From: a virus
Taxonomy: Duplodnaviria; Heunggongvirae; Uroviricota; Caudoviricetes
DNA: 13,415 nt
Virus record (IMG/VR): IMGVR_UViG_2654587746_000003
Span: 1 to 13,415 of that record
Strand: one strand, 5' to 3'
Shown piece by piece: positions 2,701 to 11,939 of this stretch; positions within the stretch are counted from its first letter, which is position 1, and each line of letters opens with the position of its first letter. Position numbers and translations under genes: made by a program. The notes below the pieces were generated by a model that saw nothing but the letters and a program-made list of their open reading frames with translations, was not told where the DNA came from and ran no database searches.

Positions 2701-3398
2701 AGATTGCTTTAGTTTTTCGCTCTGGTGGTGACTATAACGCTTCCGATGTGCAGTGGCTGGTTAATCAACTGCCAAAAGGCTATGAAATTATTTGCCTGAC
2801 AGACCTGAAGCGTTTACATGTACCTGGCGTCAAAGTTGTCCCATTGATCAACCAGTGGCAAAAGTGCCGTGGCTGGTGGGCGAAAATCGAGTTGTTCCGA
2901 CCGGATATAACCGATGATCTGTTCTATCTGGATTTGGACACGGTTATTGCCGGTGATATACGCCCAATCCTAGAGCATCCACCAACCAGCTTCACCATGC
3001 TTAGGGATTTTTACCATCCACAATATCGTGGCAGCGGTGCCCTGTGGATACCAAATAGTGTTAAAGCGCATATCTGGAGTTCATTCTGGCAAGATCCGGA
3101 AGGTTGGATTTCTCGTTGTGTCACTACTGAGTGCTGGGGTGACCAGGGGTTCTTACGAAAGGTTATGGGCGATGATACACCAGCATTTCAGGATCTGTAT
3201 CCAGGATGGTTTGTAAGTTACAAGGCCGATGTTGTGGAACCTGGTTCAAAATATGCGAGCGCGCGTTACTCCAGGGGGAATGGGGCATTACCAAAAGACT
3301 GCCGAATAATCTTTTTCCACGGCAAACCGCGACCTCGCGAAGTGTCAGAGGATTGGCTTCCCCTTATCAGCTCATTTTTTGAGCGAGAATCAGAATAA
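2697..3398 (+). CDS. GT8-like (GT-A fold, DxD) glycosyltransferase, putative
   Basis: ATGA overlap with the phosphatase stop. [29 protein letters not shown] resembles the GT8 signature (K..L...L.....YLDxDxxV.GDI). Later DQGFL and FFHGKPRP resemble the GT8 DQD..N and H.G..KPW motifs. Motif-level only. Confidence 0.5.
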
Positions 3399-3399
3399 T

Positions 3400-3416
3400 A
3401 TTGCTCTAATAATTCC
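3400..3416 (+). promoter_or_regulatory. P1 C1-repressor operator-like site overlapping a sigma70-like promoter
   Basis: ATTGCTCTAATAATTCC matches the remembered C1 operator consensus ATTGCTCTAATAAATTT at 14/17. TTGCTC (3401-3406), 17-bp spacer, TAAAAC (3424-3429) gives promoter-like spacing. Confidence 0.55.
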
Positions 3417-3447
3417 ATATTTTTAAAACGTGATGTACACTCATCAC

Positions 3448-3464
3448 ATTTTTTATTAGAGCAA
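3448..3464 (-). promoter_or_regulatory. second C1-operator-like site, inverted orientation
   Basis: Reverse complement of 3448-3464 is ATTGCTCTAATAAAAAA (14/17 to consensus). Forms a 13-bp inverted repeat with the 3400 site. Lies between the putative start site and the RBS (AAGGTG, 3470-3475) of the 3480 gene. Confidence 0.5.
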
Positions 3465-3479
3465 TCTACAAGGTGCACT

Positions 3480-3698
3480 ATGTGGCCATTCCGACGGAAA
3501 TATCACTACTGGCTGATCGCCTTTGTTACGCCGACCGGCGGTATCAGGCATGTAATCACCAGGTATCGCAACAAGAGACTCACCTTAGCCAGAATTTTAC
3601 AGGCTGCCATAGGTGAGGGACTGGATACAAATCGCGTAGTCCTTCCACCTTCATACTTAGGAAAAATGACCGAAGCACAAGCTAATACGGAACTTTGA
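3480..3698 (+). CDS. hypothetical protein (72 aa)
   Basis: ATG 3480 with AAGGTG RBS. Stop TGA 3696-3698 is 1 nt from ATG 3700 of the next gene (coupling). No recognisable domain. Confidence 0.45.
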   Translation: MWPFRRKYHYWLIAFVTPTGGIRHVITRYRNKRLTLARILQAAIGEGLDTNRVVLPPSYLGKMTEAQANTEL

Positions 3699-3699
3699 A

Positions 3700-4962
3700 A
3701 TGAGCACTTCAGCACAAAACCAATCAATCGAAAATGTATCTATCCCTGACGTCCTGAATGCCGGTATCCCAGCCATTATCCAGAACATCCGGGCCGCGCA
3801 ACGCCGCGTTAGTTGTGATGACCTCACAGCGCGTTTTTTTGATAATGCGGTTCAGTCAGCGGAGATGCTTCACGCACAGCTTATTGATGTTTATAACGCA
3901 GAAGCTGATAGCCATAACTCCCTGGTAGATGCAGCTGAAAATATGCAGTTGGATCTCGGTCTGAAGGGTAAAGAAATTGAAGAGCTTCAGCTACAAATTG
4001 AACATTTGAAACGCCAGCAACAGGACGCGATCGACGATGCGACGCATGACGCCAACCAGCGTGCTGATAATGCCGAACGTATAAGCATTGAGCTGGAAAC
4101 AAAACTCAATGAAATGACCGCGATGGTTGAACTGCGGAACTCACAGATTTCAACGCTAAAATCTCAATATAAAGAGATCATGAAACTTGATCCTTTTAAC
4201 CTTGAGAAACGCTATAACAAAGCTAAAAGCGAGCGACAGGAACTGCGTAAGCAGGTCGCCGACCTTAACCAACAGCTCAAAAAAACTATTAAAGATGCAA
4301 GCGAAGCGCGCGTGGCATTTGCTAATAAAAAAGCAGAGGTTACCGCGCTGGTTAATGAGAATGCCAAATTTGCGACGCTCAAGAAGGAAATGTATGGCAT
4401 TACTGAGCGCCGTTTCCCTGCAAGCAAACTTCATCCGACGTTAGGGCAAATCTCCTTCTTCCCGCGCCTCCTGGCTTATGGGATCTCATCGCCTAAAGAG
4501 TTCAATAACGAGCGTCCTTATATCGTTTCTAAGCTGGACTTTGCTTATCAGTTCTGCTGCGACATGGGCTATGCCATTGATATCCGAATCAACGAATGGT
4601 TGATGCCAAACTTCCAGCCGTTGGCAATTTTCCGCGAGTTCCAGCCGGAAGGTTGGGTAGAGTTCTTCCATGAATTGATCTGTAAAGAGATGGAAAGCCG
4701 CCGCCCGGAATTGGTCCGTCGAGTTGAGTGGGCGCAAGAGGTTATGTTGGCAGATGCAGAGCTGCCGTTCGAACCGGAATTCATTGATGATCTGGCAACT
4801 AAAGGGTTGCATACCCTGTTTGATGTGGTTACCCGCCGTCATGAGCAGTTGGTTGTCGAATTGGGTTTAGAGGAAACTGCGGCAAGAAGACTTCTCGATG
4901 TTTGCTATGCACGTAGCGAGGCATGGGAAAAAGAGAACGGCGGCACTATTTACGTTCGCTGA
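3700..4962 (+). CDS. hypothetical protein (420 aa): N-terminal ~230-aa predicted coiled coil, C-terminal globular domain of unknown function
   Basis: Long ORF. N-terminal half is heptad-like and charged (ELQLQIEHLKRQQQDAIDD...RQELRKQVADLNQQLKK). C-terminal half is aromatic and Cys-containing (ERPYIVSKLDFAYQFCCDMGYAIDIRINEW...). No motif I can assign. Confidence 0.7.
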   Translation: MSTSAQNQSIENVSIPDVLNAGIPAIIQNIRAAQRRVSCDDLTARFFDNAVQSAEMLHAQLIDVYNAEADSHNSLVDAAENMQLDLGLKGKEIEELQLQIEHLKRQQQDAIDDATHDANQRADNAERISIELETKLNEMTAMVELRNSQISTLKSQYKEIMKLDPFNLEKRYNKAKSERQELRKQVADLNQQLKKTIKDASEARVAFANKKAEVTALVNENAKFATLKKEMYGITERRFPASKLHPTLGQISFFPRLLAYGISSPKEFNNERPYIVSKLDFAYQFCCDMGYAIDIRINEWLMPNFQPLAIFREFQPEGWVEFFHELICKEMESRRPELVRRVEWAQEVMLADAELPFEPEFIDDLATKGLHTLFDVVTRRHEQLVVELGLEETAARRLLDVCYARSEAWEKENGGTIYVR

Positions 4963-4981: not shown

Positions 4982-5017
4982 AATGCTGGTGGAGTGCTCC
5001 CACCAGCATTTTTTTCG
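4982..5017 (+). terminator. rho-independent terminator
   Basis: AATGCTGGTGGAG (4982-4994), short loop, CTCCCACCAGCATT (4997-5010), then TTTTTTT (5010-5016); 20 nt after the 420-aa stop. Confidence 0.8.
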
Positions 5018-5034
5018 TCCAATGAGGAGGGCAT

Positions 5035-5541
5035 TTGAGTATTTTCAATAAACACGCACACCAGGAACGTCCGTACATCGTCATAGTAGATATTGATGGG
5101 ACGATATCAGAGGCAACGGAAGACAGGCTGCATTTACTTCCACCACCTGGCAAAGGTGCATTAACAGAGCACTGGAACGAGTTTAACCTTGCCTGTGACA
5201 CTGATGCTCCCATCACTCCAGTTATTGATATGGTGCGCCAGTTGTCCGGCATTTACACCCTCTGGTTTGTAACCGGGCGCTGTGAGATAGCCAGGGATAA
5301 AACACGAGCCTGGTTGCGTAAGCACGTAACAAATGGGGCTGAGCCTTTGCTATCTATGCGTCCTGCCACCGATGACAGAAATGACGGTCCAGCAAAGATT
5401 GATCTCCTGAAGAAAATTGGTCTAAGTAAAATTGCGTTCGCGCTGGAAGATAAGATTGAAGTGGCGCGTGTTTTCAGGAGTCACGGCGTACTTACGTTAA
5501 TGGTCAGGGAGTATGAAAACGCGCTTCTCCATCAACAATAA
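5035..5541 (+). CDS. HAD-superfamily phosphatase (DxDGT motif I), nucleotidase / polynucleotide 3'-phosphatase-like
   Basis: TTG 5035 preceded by GAGGAGG (5024-5030). IVIVDIDGTIS is HAD motif I; a later WFVTGR is motif II-like. Exact start uncertain. Confidence 0.65.
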   Translation: MSIFNKHAHQERPYIVIVDIDGTISEATEDRLHLLPPPGKGALTEHWNEFNLACDTDAPITPVIDMVRQLSGIYTLWFVTGRCEIARDKTRAWLRKHVTNGAEPLLSMRPATDDRNDGPAKIDLLKKIGLSKIAFALEDKIEVARVFRSHGVLTLMVREYENALLHQQ

Positions 5542-5571
5542 TTACTCTAATAAATCTTGATTTTTAAAACA
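5541..5571 (+). promoter_or_regulatory. C1-operator-like site plus promoter-like -35/-10
   Basis: ATTACTCTAATAAATCT (5541-5557) is 15/17 to the C1 consensus. TTACTC, 17-bp spacer, TAAAAC (5565-5570) has the same architecture as the 3400 element, including the shared ATTTTTAAAAC. Confidence 0.5.
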
Positions 5572-5639
5572 GAGAAAATGAAAATAAAAACATGCCGCAA
5601 GGCGCGGCATGTATCCAATCAATCTCAGGAGCTGAAAAT

Positions 5640-5726
5640 ATGAACACGGCATTCAAAATCATTATGGCCGCGATCTATTTCTGGCTGTTCTCTATCACTT
5701 TTGGCAGCATTGTCGCGCATGGGTAA
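5640..5726 (+). CDS. small hydrophobic peptide (28 aa, one predicted transmembrane helix), not in ORF track
   Basis: AGGAG (5627-5631), 8-nt spacer, ATG 5640. Translation MNTAFKIIMAAIYFWLFSITFGSIVAHG, stop TAA 5724-5726. Confidence 0.45.
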   Translation: MNTAFKIIMAAIYFWLFSITFGSIVAHG

Positions 5727-5805
5727 GGGGAGTATATTAGCCATTTGGAACCCCACGGTCTCTTGCGGGTTTAATTAAGAACCCGCAAGAAAAATACGAA
5801 TTGGG

Positions 5806-8800
5806 CTATATTTTTCCGCCTACGCCTTTAAACTTCTCAATAAACGAGACGATTTTCTGGAAAACTGCCTGTTTTTTCGTTTTATATTGCGGATTCAACG
5901 GACTAAGTTTTGGTAATGTTTCGTTTAATTCTGTGCCATTTTCGGTGGCGTATTCGCGTTTTAAAGACATGCGAATATAGCGTTTTGCTGCATCTTCATT
6001 GAGATTTTCTTCTTTTATCAATGCTTCTGCTTCACGTTGCTGTTCGCGTTGAGCAAACGTAAAGAATGCCTCAATGATACTGGCTTTGTCTGGTAAATCA
6101 TCCAGGTTCGTTTGCTGAATAAAATCGACCACCAGGCCCTCTTTCGCCCGGTTCCCCAGGCTTGAACGAATTAAGCGTTTGACCTCTTCGATCATTTCGC
6201 CCTTGCCTTTATTTTGTCTGTTGTGTTCGAAAATCAGTCCAAGGATATAATCCAGGTTTATTTCCTGAGACTTCAGCAAATCGACCTCAAAAACTACGTC
6301 ATCCCAGTCAGTGGTTGATTTCTCTTTTTTCTCAGCTTCTTTCTCACGGCGCTGCCAGTCGCGAATATCGTTATAGGCAGAACGATAATCCTGAATCTTG
6401 CGATCAGCAGGGAGACGAATTGTTTGCAATTCAGCGAACTTTTCATTATCCACATAATGTTCTGCTTTGAATTTTTCTACCGCAACAGGATCGCTAAGAT
6501 CGATTTGTTGCAGGGCTTTTAGCGTGGCAAATTCATCATAGTTTTGCAGGATGTTCTCGGCACGCAGGTATTCGCCAAACAGTTTAACGAAGTCTTTCTT
6601 CTCTTTTTCACTTTCAATACTGGTAGGGTCAGGGAACCGTTGTTCCAGTTCTGAAACTACTGTCATGAAGCCGCGTTTAGCTTCACCAGTGGCAGCATCA
6701 GTAAAGCCTTCCATATACTCTGCATAACTCTTTTCTAAAACCACATTTTTGGTATTTTTGTCACCAAACAGCGTTATGGCATCAATGGTTGAGCGTTCCA
6801 GATCCCGGAACGTGACAATATTACCGAAGGTTTTAGTCGCGTCATAAATGCGGTTGGTGCGGGAGAATGCCTGCATCAGGCCGTGAAAACGCAAGTTTTT
6901 ATCGACGAATAGCGTGTTTAATGTTGGAGCATCGAAGCCGGTTAAAAACATCCCCACGACAATTAGCAGATCGATATCCTGATTTTTAACCCGCTGGGCT
7001 AAATCACGATAGTAGTTCTGAAAACCGTTACTGTCGGTGCTAAAGTTAGTTTTAAAATGGCTGTTATATTCACGAATTGCAGCGTCCAGAAACTCTTTAG
7101 CACTGCTGTCCATTGCGCTGGTATCAAAAGTTTCATCGGAAATTTCACCAATGGCATTTTGTTCTTCATTGGCGGCAAAGGAGAAGATTGTCGCAATACG
7201 CAGCGGTTTATAGGTAGCCGATTTATTAGCGGCTTCCTCTTGTAACCGTTTAAACGTCGCGTAATAGGCTTTCGCGGCATCCACGCTGCTCACTGCCAGC
7301 ATGGCATTAAAACCTTTGGAGCCAGGGAAAGTACGGTGGGTTTTCTGGCGGAAGTTATTCAGGATATATTGCGTAATTTCCTGAATACGCATGGGATGAA
7401 GGAACGCCTGCTGATTTTCAGCCGCACTCAGTTTTTTCTCGTCGGTTTCTGTCTCTAAAGACTTAAATTGTGGCCGCACATCGTTATAGTCCACCTTGAA
7501 TTTGAGCACTTTTTCATCACGAATCGCATCGGTAATCACATACGAATGCAATTCACGACCAAATACGCTGGCGGTCGTTTCTGAGCCTAAAGCGTTTTCC
7601 GGGAAAATAGGTGTGCCGGTAAAACCAAACTGATAATAGCGTTTGAATTTCTTCTTCAGGTTTTTCTGCGCTTCTCCAAACTGGCTGCGGTGGCATTCAT
7701 CAAATATAAACACCACTTGCTGATTGTATACAGGCAGATCGCTTTCTGCTTTCATCAGGTTATTGAGTTTCTGAATAGTAGTGACGATAATTTTGTTATC
7801 GTCCTTATCCAGATTTCGTTTAAGACCTGCGGTATTTTCCGAGCCGTTGACGCTGTCTGGCGAAAAACGCTGATATTCCTTCATGGTCTGGTAATCGAGG
7901 TCTTTCCTGTCGACCACAAAGAAGACTTTATCAATAAAGTCCAGCTCTGTTGCCAGACGCGCGGCTTTAAAGCTGGTGAGGGTTTTACCAGAACCGGTAG
8001 TGTGCCAGATATACCCACCGCTTTCCGGTTTTGACCAGTTCTTCGCTGTAAAGGAACTCTTAATTTTCCACAGAATGCGCTCGGTGGCGGCAATCTGGTA
8101 CGGTCGCATTACCAGTAGTGTCTGACTGCTGTCAAAAACGCTGTAGTTCACCAGAACATTAAGCAGAGTATGTTTCTGGAAAAAGGTAGCGGTAAAGTCT
8201 TTGAGGTCTTTAATCAGCGTGTTGTCTGATTTAGCCCAGTTCATGGTGAAGTCAAAACTGTTTTTATCGCGCTTTGTGGTGTTGGCAAAATAACGGGTAT
8301 CAGTGCCGTTGGAAATGACGAACAGCTGCAGATACTTAAACAGGGAATTTTCGCTGTTAAAACTCTCTTTACTGTAACGATGTATCTGGTTGAAAGCCTC
8401 ACGAATCGCCACCCCGCGTTTTTTTAGTTCGATTTGCACCAGCGGTAAACCATTAACCAGGATCGTGACGTCATAACGGTTAGCATGAGAACCCGTCTGT
8501 TCAAACTGCTGGATAATCTGCACCTTATTGCGCATGAGATTCTTTTTATCTATCAAATAGATGTTCTCAAGACGCTCGTCATCAAAAATAAAGTCGCAAA
8601 TATAGTCGATATGGATTTTACGGGTCTTATCCAGAATGCCATCGCTCGGGTTATCCAGATACTGCTCCGTGAAACGCCGCCACTCGCTGTCATTAAACAC
8701 CACACCATTGAGGTTCTGAAGCTGTTCCCGAACATTGGCTAGCATCGCCGACTGTGATTTTACGGATATAAATTCATAGCCCTGATTCCGCAGGTCCTGA

Positions 8801-8922
8801 ATCAGTTCACGTTCCAGGTCCGATTCGCTCTGATAGCTGTCGCCTGTTTGCTCAGCTTTGATGTACTTATCAAGAACGATAAAGTTATTGGATTCAGCAA
8901 TGGTGTGTGTCTGATGAGTCAT
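5806..8922 (-). CDS. hsdR: Type I restriction enzyme R subunit (HsdR), Type IC family size (1038 aa)
   Basis: Walker A GSGKT, DEAD-box-like FDECH, helicase motifs ([12 protein letters not shown]). The 1038-aa length and the partner genes match the EcoR124/EcoprrI (IC) family. RBS AAGGA upstream of ATG. Confidence 0.93.
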
Positions 8923-9043
8923 AGCGCATCCTTTGTGCCGTCTGGCAAGGGCCGGAAGGGAGTTAAGGGCGACTTCCAGCGCGTAAAAAATAGTCTATAT
9001 ACTGACCGGGTGTTAAGGTGGCCCGGTCGGTAGCAATGGTCAA

Positions 9044-10245
<1,202 letters not shown>

Positions 10246-10249
<4 letters not shown>

Positions 10250-11808
10250 GATTGCGCCTTGTCACCTTCAATCTTTGCCACAATTGCATCAATATCTTTA
10301 CGCAACTGGTCGATTTTGCTGACCGTGGTTTTCAGCTCAGCATTCAGCTCAGCAATATCGATAATTTCGCGGTTATCTTTCGCTTCCACATAGCTGCTCA
10401 CCGACAGGTTATAGTCATTAGCAACAACGGCCTCAAACGCGACAGATTTCGCCAGATGAGCAACATTTTCTTTGCTGGCAAATACCTGCATAATCTGGTT
10501 GATATGGGCATCGGTCAGGATATTGTTGTTAGTCTCTTTTTTGAACAGTTCGCTGGCGTCAATAAACTGAACTTTGGTATCCGTTTTATGTTTAGACAGC
10601 ACCAGAATATTTACGGCAATGGTGGTGCCAAAGAACAGGTTCGGTGCGAGTGAAATCACGGTTTCGACATAGTTATTGTCGACCAGATACTGACGGATTT
10701 TCTGCTCTGCGCCGCCACGGTAAAAAATACCCGGGAAGCAGACAATCGCAGCACGACCTTTGGCCGAAAGATAGTTCAGCGCATGTAGTACAAACGCAAA
10801 GTCAGCTTTGGATTTGGGGGCCAGAACGCCAGCCGGGGCAAAACGTTCATCGTTAATCAGCGTCGGGTCATCGCTGCCAATCCATTTCACCGAATACGGT
10901 GGATTAGATACGATGGCGTCAAACGGTTTTTCATCTCTGAAGTGCGGCTCAGTCAGTGTATTACCCAGCTTGATATCAAACTTGTCGTAGTTGATATTGT
11001 GCAAAAACATGTTCATACGCGCCAGGTTATAGGTCGTATGGTTGATTTCCTGACCGAAAAAGCCTTCTTCGATGATGTGGTTATCAAACTGTTTTTTCGC
11101 CTGCAACAACAGTGAGCCGGAACCCGCTGCCGGGTCGTAGATTTTGTTAACGCTGGTCTGCCCGTGCATAGCCAGTTGTGCAATCAGCTTGGAGACGTGC
11201 TGCGGTGTAAAGAACTCACCGCCTGACTTACCGGCATTTGCGGCATAGTTAGAAATCAGGAACTCATAGGCATCACCGAACAGGTCAATCTGATGTTCGT
11301 TGAAGTCACCAAGTTTTAACCCTTCAACCCCTTTCAGAACCGCTGCCAGGCGGGCATTTTTATCTTTAACGGTGTTACCCAGGCGGTTACTGGTGGTATC
11401 GAAATCAGCAAACAAACCTTTGATGTCAGCTTCTGAAGGGTAACCGTAAGCAGAACTTTCGATAGCAACGAAGATGCTGTTTAAATCTGCATTCAGTCTG
11501 TCATTGGTCTTTGCTTTCGCAGCTACGTTGCAGAAAAGCTGGCTTGGGTAGATGAAGTAGCCTTTGGTTTTGATGGCATCGTCTTTAATGTCATCAGTAA
11601 TTACGCTGTCATCCAGTTTCGCATAACAGATACTGTCATCACCGGCTTCAATATAGCTGGAAAAATTTTCGCTGATAAAACGGTAGAAAAGTGCGCCCAG
11701 AACGTATTGCTTAAAATCCCATCCATCGACCGAACCTCTGACATCGTTGGCAATTTGCCAGATTTGACGATGAAGCTCTGCACGTTGTTGAATACTTGTC
11801 ATTTTCAT
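10246..11808 (-). CDS. hsdM: Type I DNA methyltransferase M subunit (HsdM), N6-adenine, 520 aa
   Basis: AdoMet motif [11 protein letters not shown] and catalytic motif IV NPPY. Length fits Type IC HsdM. A possible promoter -10 TAGAAT (complement of 11843-11848) lies upstream. Confidence 0.93.
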
Positions 11809-11939
11809 CCACTTATTTCAGGCTTATGTAATTGGCGGTGATTCTACAGCAACTTGGATGCTTTAGCAGTTCGGACATTAGGCTACGAATGACCTGCCTA
11901 GAGGTTTGTTAAGCCGCAAAGTGCTGGTGCTTTATGCCT

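Follow-up and report, generated by a model that had tools for sequence, protein, structure and literature searches.

A probable 28-codon membrane peptide gene behind the C1 operator Op88 in a P1-like phage-plasmid

In the P1-like phage-plasmid analysed here, the C1 operator Op88 is followed by a 28-codon open reading frame (ORF) with a strong Shine-Dalgarno (SD) sequence. On balance, and with modest confidence, we favour that this ORF is a real small gene, that it is the first cistron of the C1-repressed Op88 (pmgT) unit, and that it encodes a 28-residue single-pass inner-membrane peptide. The ORF lies in a 13,415-nt stretch of viral DNA, the whole of which is referred to as the window; its features are listed in Table 1.

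Table 1. Positions of the features in and around the small ORF, numbered from the first nucleotide of the window
Feature	Position	Strand	Remarks
pap, 3'-phosphatase/5'-polynucleotide kinase-like	5035..5541	+	P1 pap 83787-84293; Pfam HAD_PNKP in homologous loci
C1 operator Op88 (OpmgT), ATTACTCTAATAAATCT	5541..5557	+	Positional homologue of P1 protein_bind 84293-84309
Predicted sigma-70 promoter P2pmgT, TTACTC-17-TAAAAC	5542..5570	+	P1 annotation; hexamers 5542-5547 and 5565-5570
Predicted sigma-70 promoter P1pmgT, TTGATT-17-GAAAAT	5557..5585	+	P1 annotation, direct reading
GC-rich hairpin of 9-10 bp, CATGCCGC/GCGGCATG	5591-5611, extendable to 5590..5612		Structurally conserved
In-frame upstream extension (44-aa form)	5592..5639	+	Probably non-coding
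Shine-Dalgarno AGGAG	5627..5631	+	8 nt before ATG; invariant in 79 aligned loci
28-codon ORF, MNTAFKIIMAAIYFWLFSITFGSIVAHG	5640..5726	+	ATG 5640, TAA 5724-5726; predicted single transmembrane helix
GGGG	5727..5730		Common to P1 type and hsd type; with the stop codon forms the P1 pmgT ribosome binding site TAAGGGGGATGCATG
10-bp hairpin, CTTGCGGGTT/AACCCGCAAG	5762..5789		Between ORF and hsdR stop; part of the hsd cassette
hsdR, type IC (EcoR124I-like)	5806..8922	-	Convergent with the small ORF
hsdS	9044-10249	-	Cassette gene
hsdM	10246-11808	-	Cassette gene

A BLAST comparison of positions 5000-6000 of the window with phage genomes gave identities of 94-98% with phage P1 and related phages. Left of the ORF, the P1 gene order is kept (ppp, pmgQ, pmgR, pmgS, pap), and the identity to P1 is ~96-97% across 5520-5730. 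Homology to P1 ends after 5730 and restarts at ~11903, just upstream of phd-doc. Between these two points lies the hsd cassette, which takes the place of P1 pmgT-pmgU-pmgV-upfMNO-hot-lxr-humD; its HsdR matched that of EcoR124I (2w00) with 2293 bits over the full length of 1038 residues. From the hsd genes and the break in P1 homology between 5730 and ~11903, we conclude that the window represents a P1-like phage-plasmid with a type IC restriction-modification cassette in place of P1 genes.

A P1 backbone with an hsd cassette is a known arrangement. In the P1 record NC_005856, positions 84263-84482 are described as 96-98% identical to DNA that lies downstream of both the EcoDXXI hsd locus and R124/3 hsdR, and P1 DNA flanks type IC hsd loci (EcoR124, EcoDXXI) according to Tyndall et al. 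(1997, Mol Microbiol 23:729) as cited in PMC12707154 and in the P1 record. The window resembles these loci in that its HsdR is essentially that of EcoR124I and in that its cassette has the Op88 region on one side and phd/doc on the other. By contrast, that literature deals with the restriction system, and no discussion of the small ORF in the hsd flank was found in the EcoR124/EcoDXXI hsd literature searched. The genes from pmgT to humD constitute 'variable region 8' of P1-like phage-plasmids (PMC9603915), and pmgT and its neighbours score as non-essential (PMC10695390). The left edge of this region, already known to be variable and non-essential, is where the ORF is located; among P1-like elements, pmgT to humD are replaced there by hsd, Ea22/DUF551-type or other cargo. 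The published description, however, is at the level of genes and includes neither the small ORF nor the position of the boundary (PMC9603915).

The original prediction, which was made from the sequence alone, placed the ORF behind a third C1-operator-like promoter, and every element that it listed was found at, or at most 1 nt from, the position given for it. The operator-like site matches the 17-bp, asymmetric C1 consensus ATTGCTCTAATAAATTT at 15 of 17 positions. With up to three mismatches allowed, the window contains three such sites (3400, 3449 and 5541) versus 0.10 expected, and three sites were reached in 0 of 200 shuffles. The sites at 3400 and 3449 are Op86a/b of P1, and the site at 5541 is Op88 of P1, renamed OpmgT. 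The operator aligned base for base with P1 84293-84309, overlapping the annotated P2pmgT and P1pmgT hexamers, and its first base is shared with the stop codon of pap. The two operators differ at position 4 only (5544), at which the window has A, a rare base found in 2 of 58 haplotypes, and P1 has G. The promoter described in the original prediction is present and corresponds to P2pmgT, the -35 hexamer of which lies inside the operator; it is weak by consensus and was missed by a promoter scan. P1pmgT is nearer to the consensus, and its transcripts would begin at ~5592, at the foot of the leader hairpin. Because Op88/OpmgT as well as P2pmgT and P1pmgT are annotated in P1 (NC_005856), the operator and promoter were already known, and the site, while real, is not a new third one.

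The likeness to the P1 Op88/pmgT region (NC_005856, 84293-84488) is not confined to the operator. The region follows pap in both elements, the promoter hexamers, the hairpin, the SD and the 28-codon ORF are common to both, and the encoded peptides are identical except for S23G. The two elements differ downstream: in P1, the ORF is followed, 9 nt on, by pmgT-pmgU-pmgV, whereas in the window it is followed after 5730 by the convergent hsd cassette.

The claim that a near-ideal ribosome binding site, AGGAG with an 8-nt spacer, precedes the 28-codon frame was confirmed. With a strong SD defined as AGGAG or GGAGG located 4-10 nt before an ATG, only two ATGs on both strands of the 13.4-kb window qualified, one of which is the start of the ORF. 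Moreover, when the window was Markov-shuffled, ~1% of the shuffled sequences combined a strong SD and an ATG with a frame of 20-60 aa in which a 19-aa window had a hydropathy of 2.0 or more. In the peptide itself, the best 19-residue Kyte-Doolittle window reached 2.08, and residues 7-26 are uncharged. This hydropathy, the ribosome binding site, the position behind a C1-controlled promoter and the conservation described below make a single-helix membrane-peptide gene plausible, as had been proposed.

The gene was also said to be unannotated. This is correct for the reference P1 record, which has no CDS here; however, a 44-aa form that starts at ATG 5592 is annotated in RefSeq and in phage records, i.e. 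as WP_024191728.1 (RefSeq, hypothetical protein), as AMR60016.1 of SJ46 ('membrane protein') and as Orf75 of phi456. We rejected the 44-aa form because natural indels fall in its N-terminal extension, with a GG insertion (6 haplotypes) and a 4-nt deletion breaking the frame between 5592 and 5640, and because ATG 5592 is buried in the hairpin stem and lacks an SD. We conclude that the conserved form has 28 codons and not 44.

In P1, the stop codon TAA of the ORF overlaps the SD of pmgT (TAAGGGGGATGCATG), and the ATG of pmgT is located 9 nt past the stop; the same holds for RCS47 and SJ46. Neighbouring cistrons of an operon are commonly arranged in this way. The arrangement would also be expected if translation of the ORF mattered while the peptide did not, with the ORF serving re-initiation at pmgT or shielding from Rho, a role that would be lost in the hsd-bearing window. 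Such a leader function is consistent with a weak amino-acid constraint on an ORF whose frame is nevertheless kept. However, pmgT has a good SD of its own, the ORF stays intact also where the convergent hsd cassette is present instead of pmgT (~25-35% of loci), and the strongly hydrophobic composition is left unexplained. We therefore regard a leader function without a role for the peptide as rather unlikely.

The original prediction had named conservation in related phage-plasmids as a check. For this comparison, 80 IMG/VR and 2 genome loci were gathered by the Pap protein and are unbiased with respect to the ORF; another 63 metagenome loci, 61 of them complete copies, were gathered via the SD region. 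The ORF was intact in 139 of 141 independently sampled homologous loci. By set, 82 Pap-set loci contained the SD anchor, and 80 of them kept all 28 codons, as did 61/61 complete metagenome copies. In both exceptions (L055 and L075), AT-rich foreign DNA is joined after codon 19, and the ORF is truncated at codon 19/20. Frame-disrupting variation would have spoken against a gene; in the 139 loci, neither an indel nor a premature stop was found in the 84 nt of the ORF, while two indel variants were found in the adjoining 98-nt leader. The region as such is present in 889 of 5426 complete E. coli genomes (16%).

Diversity at codon positions 1, 2 and 3 was 0.014, 0.006 and 0.028 in the ORF, and 0.027, 0.008 and 0.097 in pap. 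Thus, the order of the positions in the ORF is as expected for coding DNA, but the differences are compressed relative to pap. Similarly, piN/piS was 0.38 for the ORF, the lowest value among the six frames, and 0.12 for pap, in which the coding signature is strong. Selection at the level of amino acids was undetectable in the ORF; 12 non-synonymous versus 6 synonymous events (binomial p 0.18-0.37) are indistinguishable from neutrality. Polar or charged variants occur in or beside the helix (G22D in 4 loci, L16Q and G28R). Moreover, diversity in 5605-5695, the SD region included, was ~ten-fold lower than at pap third positions. Because diversity is low at synonymous sites and in the untranslated 5612-5639 alike, part of the conservation is at the nucleotide level or due to recent spread and is not explained by the peptide. 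In total, the comparative data are compatible with a gene without proving one.

These data bear on the main rival to a gene, i.e. that the open frame is functionless. Here, 5558-5730 would merely be the 5' leader of the pmgT operon, present in the window as a relic upstream of the hsd cassette, and its conservation would stem from a recent origin of the whole block, from recombination of the block as a unit, or from constraint on the RNA or DNA. The neutral-like ratio of events, the low diversity that spans synonymous sites and non-coding 5612-5639, the lack of homologues beyond elements at least 89% identical and the persistence of disrupted copies in nature all agree with a functionless frame. 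By contrast, ideal SD spacing combined with an ATG and a hydrophobic product of transmembrane length is rare by chance, piN/piS is the lowest of the six frames, indels are found in the leader and not in the ORF, and the stop codon lies within the SD of the next gene as in ordinary operons. We consider a functionless frame possible but doubtful.

Searches for relatives of the peptide yielded P1-like elements only. No homologue outside these elements was found in 5.8 billion proteins by a word-indexed search or in 1.84 billion representatives by an exhaustive phmmer search, and tblastn of phage and plasmid collections returned P1-like copies only; all matches to the peptide were at least 89% identical. 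The peptide matched no family in Pfam (type I toxin families included), NCBIfam, PHROGs or PADLOC, the best PHROGs match being to a family of unknown function (E = 0.09). The N-terminal 232 residues of PmgT, in comparison, belong to a widespread phage ASCH-domain family. A conserved pairing of a small transmembrane ORF with PmgT was considered and rejected; the PmgT homologues of PhiR68_1, Serratia BZS1 and SPN1S have other genes upstream. Finally, the literature searched, to which the P1 genome paper did not belong, contained no translation or transcription mapping, ribosome-profiling or proteomic data for the interval.

The original prediction compared the peptide with type I toxins and small membrane regulators. 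In type I toxin-antitoxin systems, the toxin mRNA is constitutive and stable, and a structured leader limits translation. Like Ibs, ShoB, TisB, Hok and MgrB/MgtR, the peptide is short, has a single hydrophobic helix and is preceded by a strong SD; in size and hydrophobicity it resembles Ibs- or ShoB-class toxins in particular. If it were a membrane-damaging peptide checked by an antisense RNA, the terminator-like hairpin at 5612-5590 on the minus strand could terminate a transcript that is complementary to the SD and the start codon, and there are weak minus-strand matches to Rfam sRNAs. These matches were all far below threshold, however; no Rfam family reached threshold on either strand, the best match scoring 17 bits where 42 are needed. 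Thus, the search for an antisense sRNA that the original prediction had suggested gave a terminator-like hairpin on the minus strand, but neither a promoter nor an Rfam match at threshold. No minus-strand promoter in or beside the ORF passed a scan at 9/12 or better, the best candidate on direct reading being a lone CATAAT (5666-5661) without a -35 hexamer, and the stability of the minus-strand fold is unremarkable (z = -1.2). Moreover, in the predicted fold, the SD lies in a loop closed by a 4-bp stem instead of being occluded by a long structure, and the promoter is C1-repressed, the opposite of what is typical for a toxin mRNA. Unlike the toxins and regulators named above, the peptide lies outside these families, has no identifiable antisense gene, and is tied to a phage repressor and to one phage-plasmid lineage. 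Given the lack of a toxin family match, an antisense promoter and an Rfam match at threshold, together with an unsequestered SD and a repressor-controlled promoter, the proposed type I toxin was not borne out, and we regard it as very improbable.

The leader hairpin of the original prediction, on the other hand, is real and conserved. Its natural variants lie in the loop or keep pairing as G-U, with one exception, in the closing pair. Read on the plus strand, it would make a stem-loop at the 5' end of the P1pmgT transcript. Its minus-strand reading had been overlooked; on that strand, it is followed by TTTTATTTTC (5589-5580), and this gives an intrinsic-terminator-like site that is the second strongest in the window and the first canonical one on this strand after the hsdR stop. 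The hairpin at 5762-5789 has no U-run next to it on either strand; it is also found in IS1-truncated IncF copies. The conserved element could accordingly be one of the minus strand, with the hairpin at 5612-5590 terminating leftward transcription from the variable cargo region, here hsdR. If the terminator is used, hsdR transcripts would cross the ORF in antisense, so that the ORF would lie under the hsdR 3' UTR. The overlap between the convergent RNAs would then span ~225 nt (5582-5806), with mutual interference possible upon induction. The rank and place of the site, the missing U-tract at 5762-5789 and the structural conservation of the 5590-5612 hairpin speak for such an element. However, the hairpin is equally conserved in P1-type elements, in which pmgT to hot all run rightward, and a 500-nt scan gave 1 terminator-like site versus 0.6 expected. 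Furthermore, the T-run of the hairpin is also the A-rich -10/discriminator of P1pmgT, and its resemblance to a terminator may therefore be incidental. A minus-strand element of this kind appears unlikely to us; it would be compatible with a coding ORF.

Some natural copies are interrupted within the ORF or at its right-hand end. In IncF plasmids with the same hsd cassette, the ORF is present from codon 3 on and cut by IS1, and two more IS1 insertions lie at codons 27 and 28. In several rare variants, different downstream DNA is joined exactly after GGGTA (5725); in these variants, the stop codon becomes Tyr and the peptide is extended (P0010-P0014), or the stop becomes TAG (L078). Four of the GGGTA variants derive from a P1-type or Ea22-type parent by deletion, with microhomology of 0-5 nt. 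Site-specific recombination at GGGTA was rejected; the right-hand partners share 0-5 nt of microhomology and no common motif. In a spread sample of 947 plasmid hits, boundaries were found at 5730 and within pmgT only and not at 5725. Because an 87-nt ORF is below the usual limits of gene calling, the protein database holds only variants that extend the ORF, and the clustering at GGGTA is thus partly a matter of ascertainment. A break hotspot could underlie the clustering, but so could selection that keeps the ORF intact, or sampling.

Two more far-reaching proposals start from these observations, i.e. either that the ORF and a leftward RNA form a repressor-gated antisense pair or that GGGTA (5721-5725), the left end common to several independent rare deletions and replacements, is a preferred break or join point for the exchange of cargo in variable region 8; that one or the other holds is a long shot. 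In an antisense pair, the leftward RNA could be the hsdR 3' UTR in the window or an unrecognised sRNA in P1, ended by the terminator at 5612-5590; it could cover the SD and the whole ORF, and the two RNAs could antagonise each other upon C1 inactivation. If true, the peptide would be a toxin-like early membrane effector involved in the timing of lysis or in abortive killing, or the pair would be a switch that lowers HsdR in the lytic phase.

We favour the reading as a small gene of the C1-repressed unit on several grounds: the identity of Op88, P1pmgT and P2pmgT, the composite of SD, ATG and transmembrane segment, the intact frame with the lowest piN/piS, the geometry of the pmgT operon, the CDS calls of independent pipelines and the occurrence in 889 of the E. 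coli genomes. It is weakened by the 12:6 ratio of events, the polar variants in the helix, the low synonymous diversity, relatives that are restricted to P1-like elements, natural copies that are truncated (codon 19/20) or cut by IS1, and distant PmgT homologues without a comparable small ORF upstream. The peptide is dispensable for plasmid maintenance.

For such a gene, we suggest the following course of events. Repression by C1 has been established for P1 (literature cited in the NC_005856 record). In a lysogen, C1 would occupy Op88, a site that overlaps or directly adjoins the -35 hexamers of the two weak sigma-70 promoters, as the homology to P1 indicates. Upon induction or infection, transcription would start at ~5577-5592, and the RNA would open with a stable stem-loop. 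Ribosomes would load at AGGAG and make the peptide, and with one Lys before a hydrophobic stretch of ~20 residues, insertion with the N terminus inside is expected. In P1, translation of the small ORF would probably also feed ribosomes to pmgT because its stop codon overlaps the pmgT SD 9 nt before the ATG. In the window, the hsd cassette has replaced pmgT to humD, and the ORF is therefore the only gene left behind Op88. Here, the peptide would be the sole product of the Op88 promoters, and the transcript would meet the 3' end of hsdR head-on.

P1 serves as a reference phage, and the ORF is probably an ordinary small membrane peptide gene of an early operon. The regulatory region in which it lies is well known, as is the phage itself. 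If the 28-aa membrane peptide is translated and controlled by C1, it would add one gene to the P1 map, and it would be the sole product of the Op88 promoters in the many elements in which a cassette of the EcoR124 type stands in for the pmgT operon. In practical terms, the value is modest and consists of a correction of the annotation, to 28 aa instead of 44 aa or nothing, and of a defined target for work on small proteins. Of the features described, only the convergence with hsdR and the breakpoint that recurs at the ORF end may lead to something more general.

The EcoR124I-type hsd cassette, which occupies the place of the P1 pmgT to humD segment, has its right junction ~80 nt upstream of phd. 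Among 5426 complete E. coli genomes, 889 contain the region, and in 221 of these 889 the junction is of the hsd type. Chi sites (GCTGGTGG) are numerous in the window, with six in 13.4 kb vs 0.29 expected, but the hsd cassette itself contains none. One pair is oriented face to face, with one site on each arm of the strongest plus-strand terminator hairpin, which is located between pmgS and pap, ~700 bp to the left of the variable-region boundary.

At least six distinct downstream sequences abut GGGTA exactly, i.e. they are joined within the stop codon of the small ORF (GGGTAA, 5721-5726), which encodes the predicted 28-residue membrane peptide. Four of these variants are deletions with microhomology of 0-5 nt, and their right ends differ, lying within pmgT, at the end of the hot gene or within an Ea22/DUF551 cassette. 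GGGTA-joined variants are rare, and the sample is skewed toward events that extend the small ORF; the clustering of joins may reflect a hotspot, selection or ascertainment. For pmgT, at least three alleles occur among P1-like elements, and they begin to diverge 61-97 nt into the gene. P1 PmgT (3237-4166 in the P1 locus L001; see also L192-L195) is labelled 'putative morphogenetic function'; its N-terminal 232 residues are common to a widespread family that in other phages is annotated as ASCH-domain or RNA-binding protein.

Features in and around the small ORF (window positions unless a homologous locus, L, or a database protein variant of the small ORF, P, is named)
Feature	Position or members	Strand	Detail
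Intrinsic terminator-like site	5580-5612	minus	leader hairpin read in reverse: 10-bp stem, then TTTTATTTTC
IS1 insertions	5647; L003/L004 about 2950-3000; P0008, P0016
Promoter-like site	5710-5738	plus	TTGTCG-17-TATATT, 9/12
Joins after GGGTA	L078, L087, L089, L187, L188, L189
AT-rich replacement past codon 19	L055 from 2163 onward, L075; P0007, P0021
EcoR124I-type hsdR-hsdS-hsdM cassette	5731-11903		in place of P1 pmgT to humD
Chi sites	4982-5010 (two sites), 2373, 2872, 12875, 13043

On the minus strand, the leader hairpin upstream of the small ORF is predicted to be a canonical intrinsic terminator, and ranks second in strength among the terminator-like sites of the whole window. Because it is the first such site on this strand past the hsdR stop (5806), hsdR transcripts may, judging from this arrangement, read through the entire small ORF in antisense. 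The promoter-like site, confined to the hsd-type junction, overlaps both the 3' end of the small ORF and the adjoining bases of the cassette flank, and is directed at the hsdR 3' end. The window's copy of operator Op88 has an A at 5544 (operator position 4) in place of the consensus G shared by P1 and 56 of 58 haplotypes; this substitution might weaken C1 binding and partially de-repress the small ORF.

At least three independent IS1 insertions fall within the ~90-bp stretch of the small ORF: in codon 3, in a widespread IncF plasmid lineage with the same hsd cassette; inside codon 27; and immediately past codon 28. Finally, in some P1-like contigs of ~97-99 kb, the small ORF is interrupted past codon 19 by AT-rich DNA without long ORFs. 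These contigs show that the intact 28-residue peptide is not needed for maintenance of the P1-like element.
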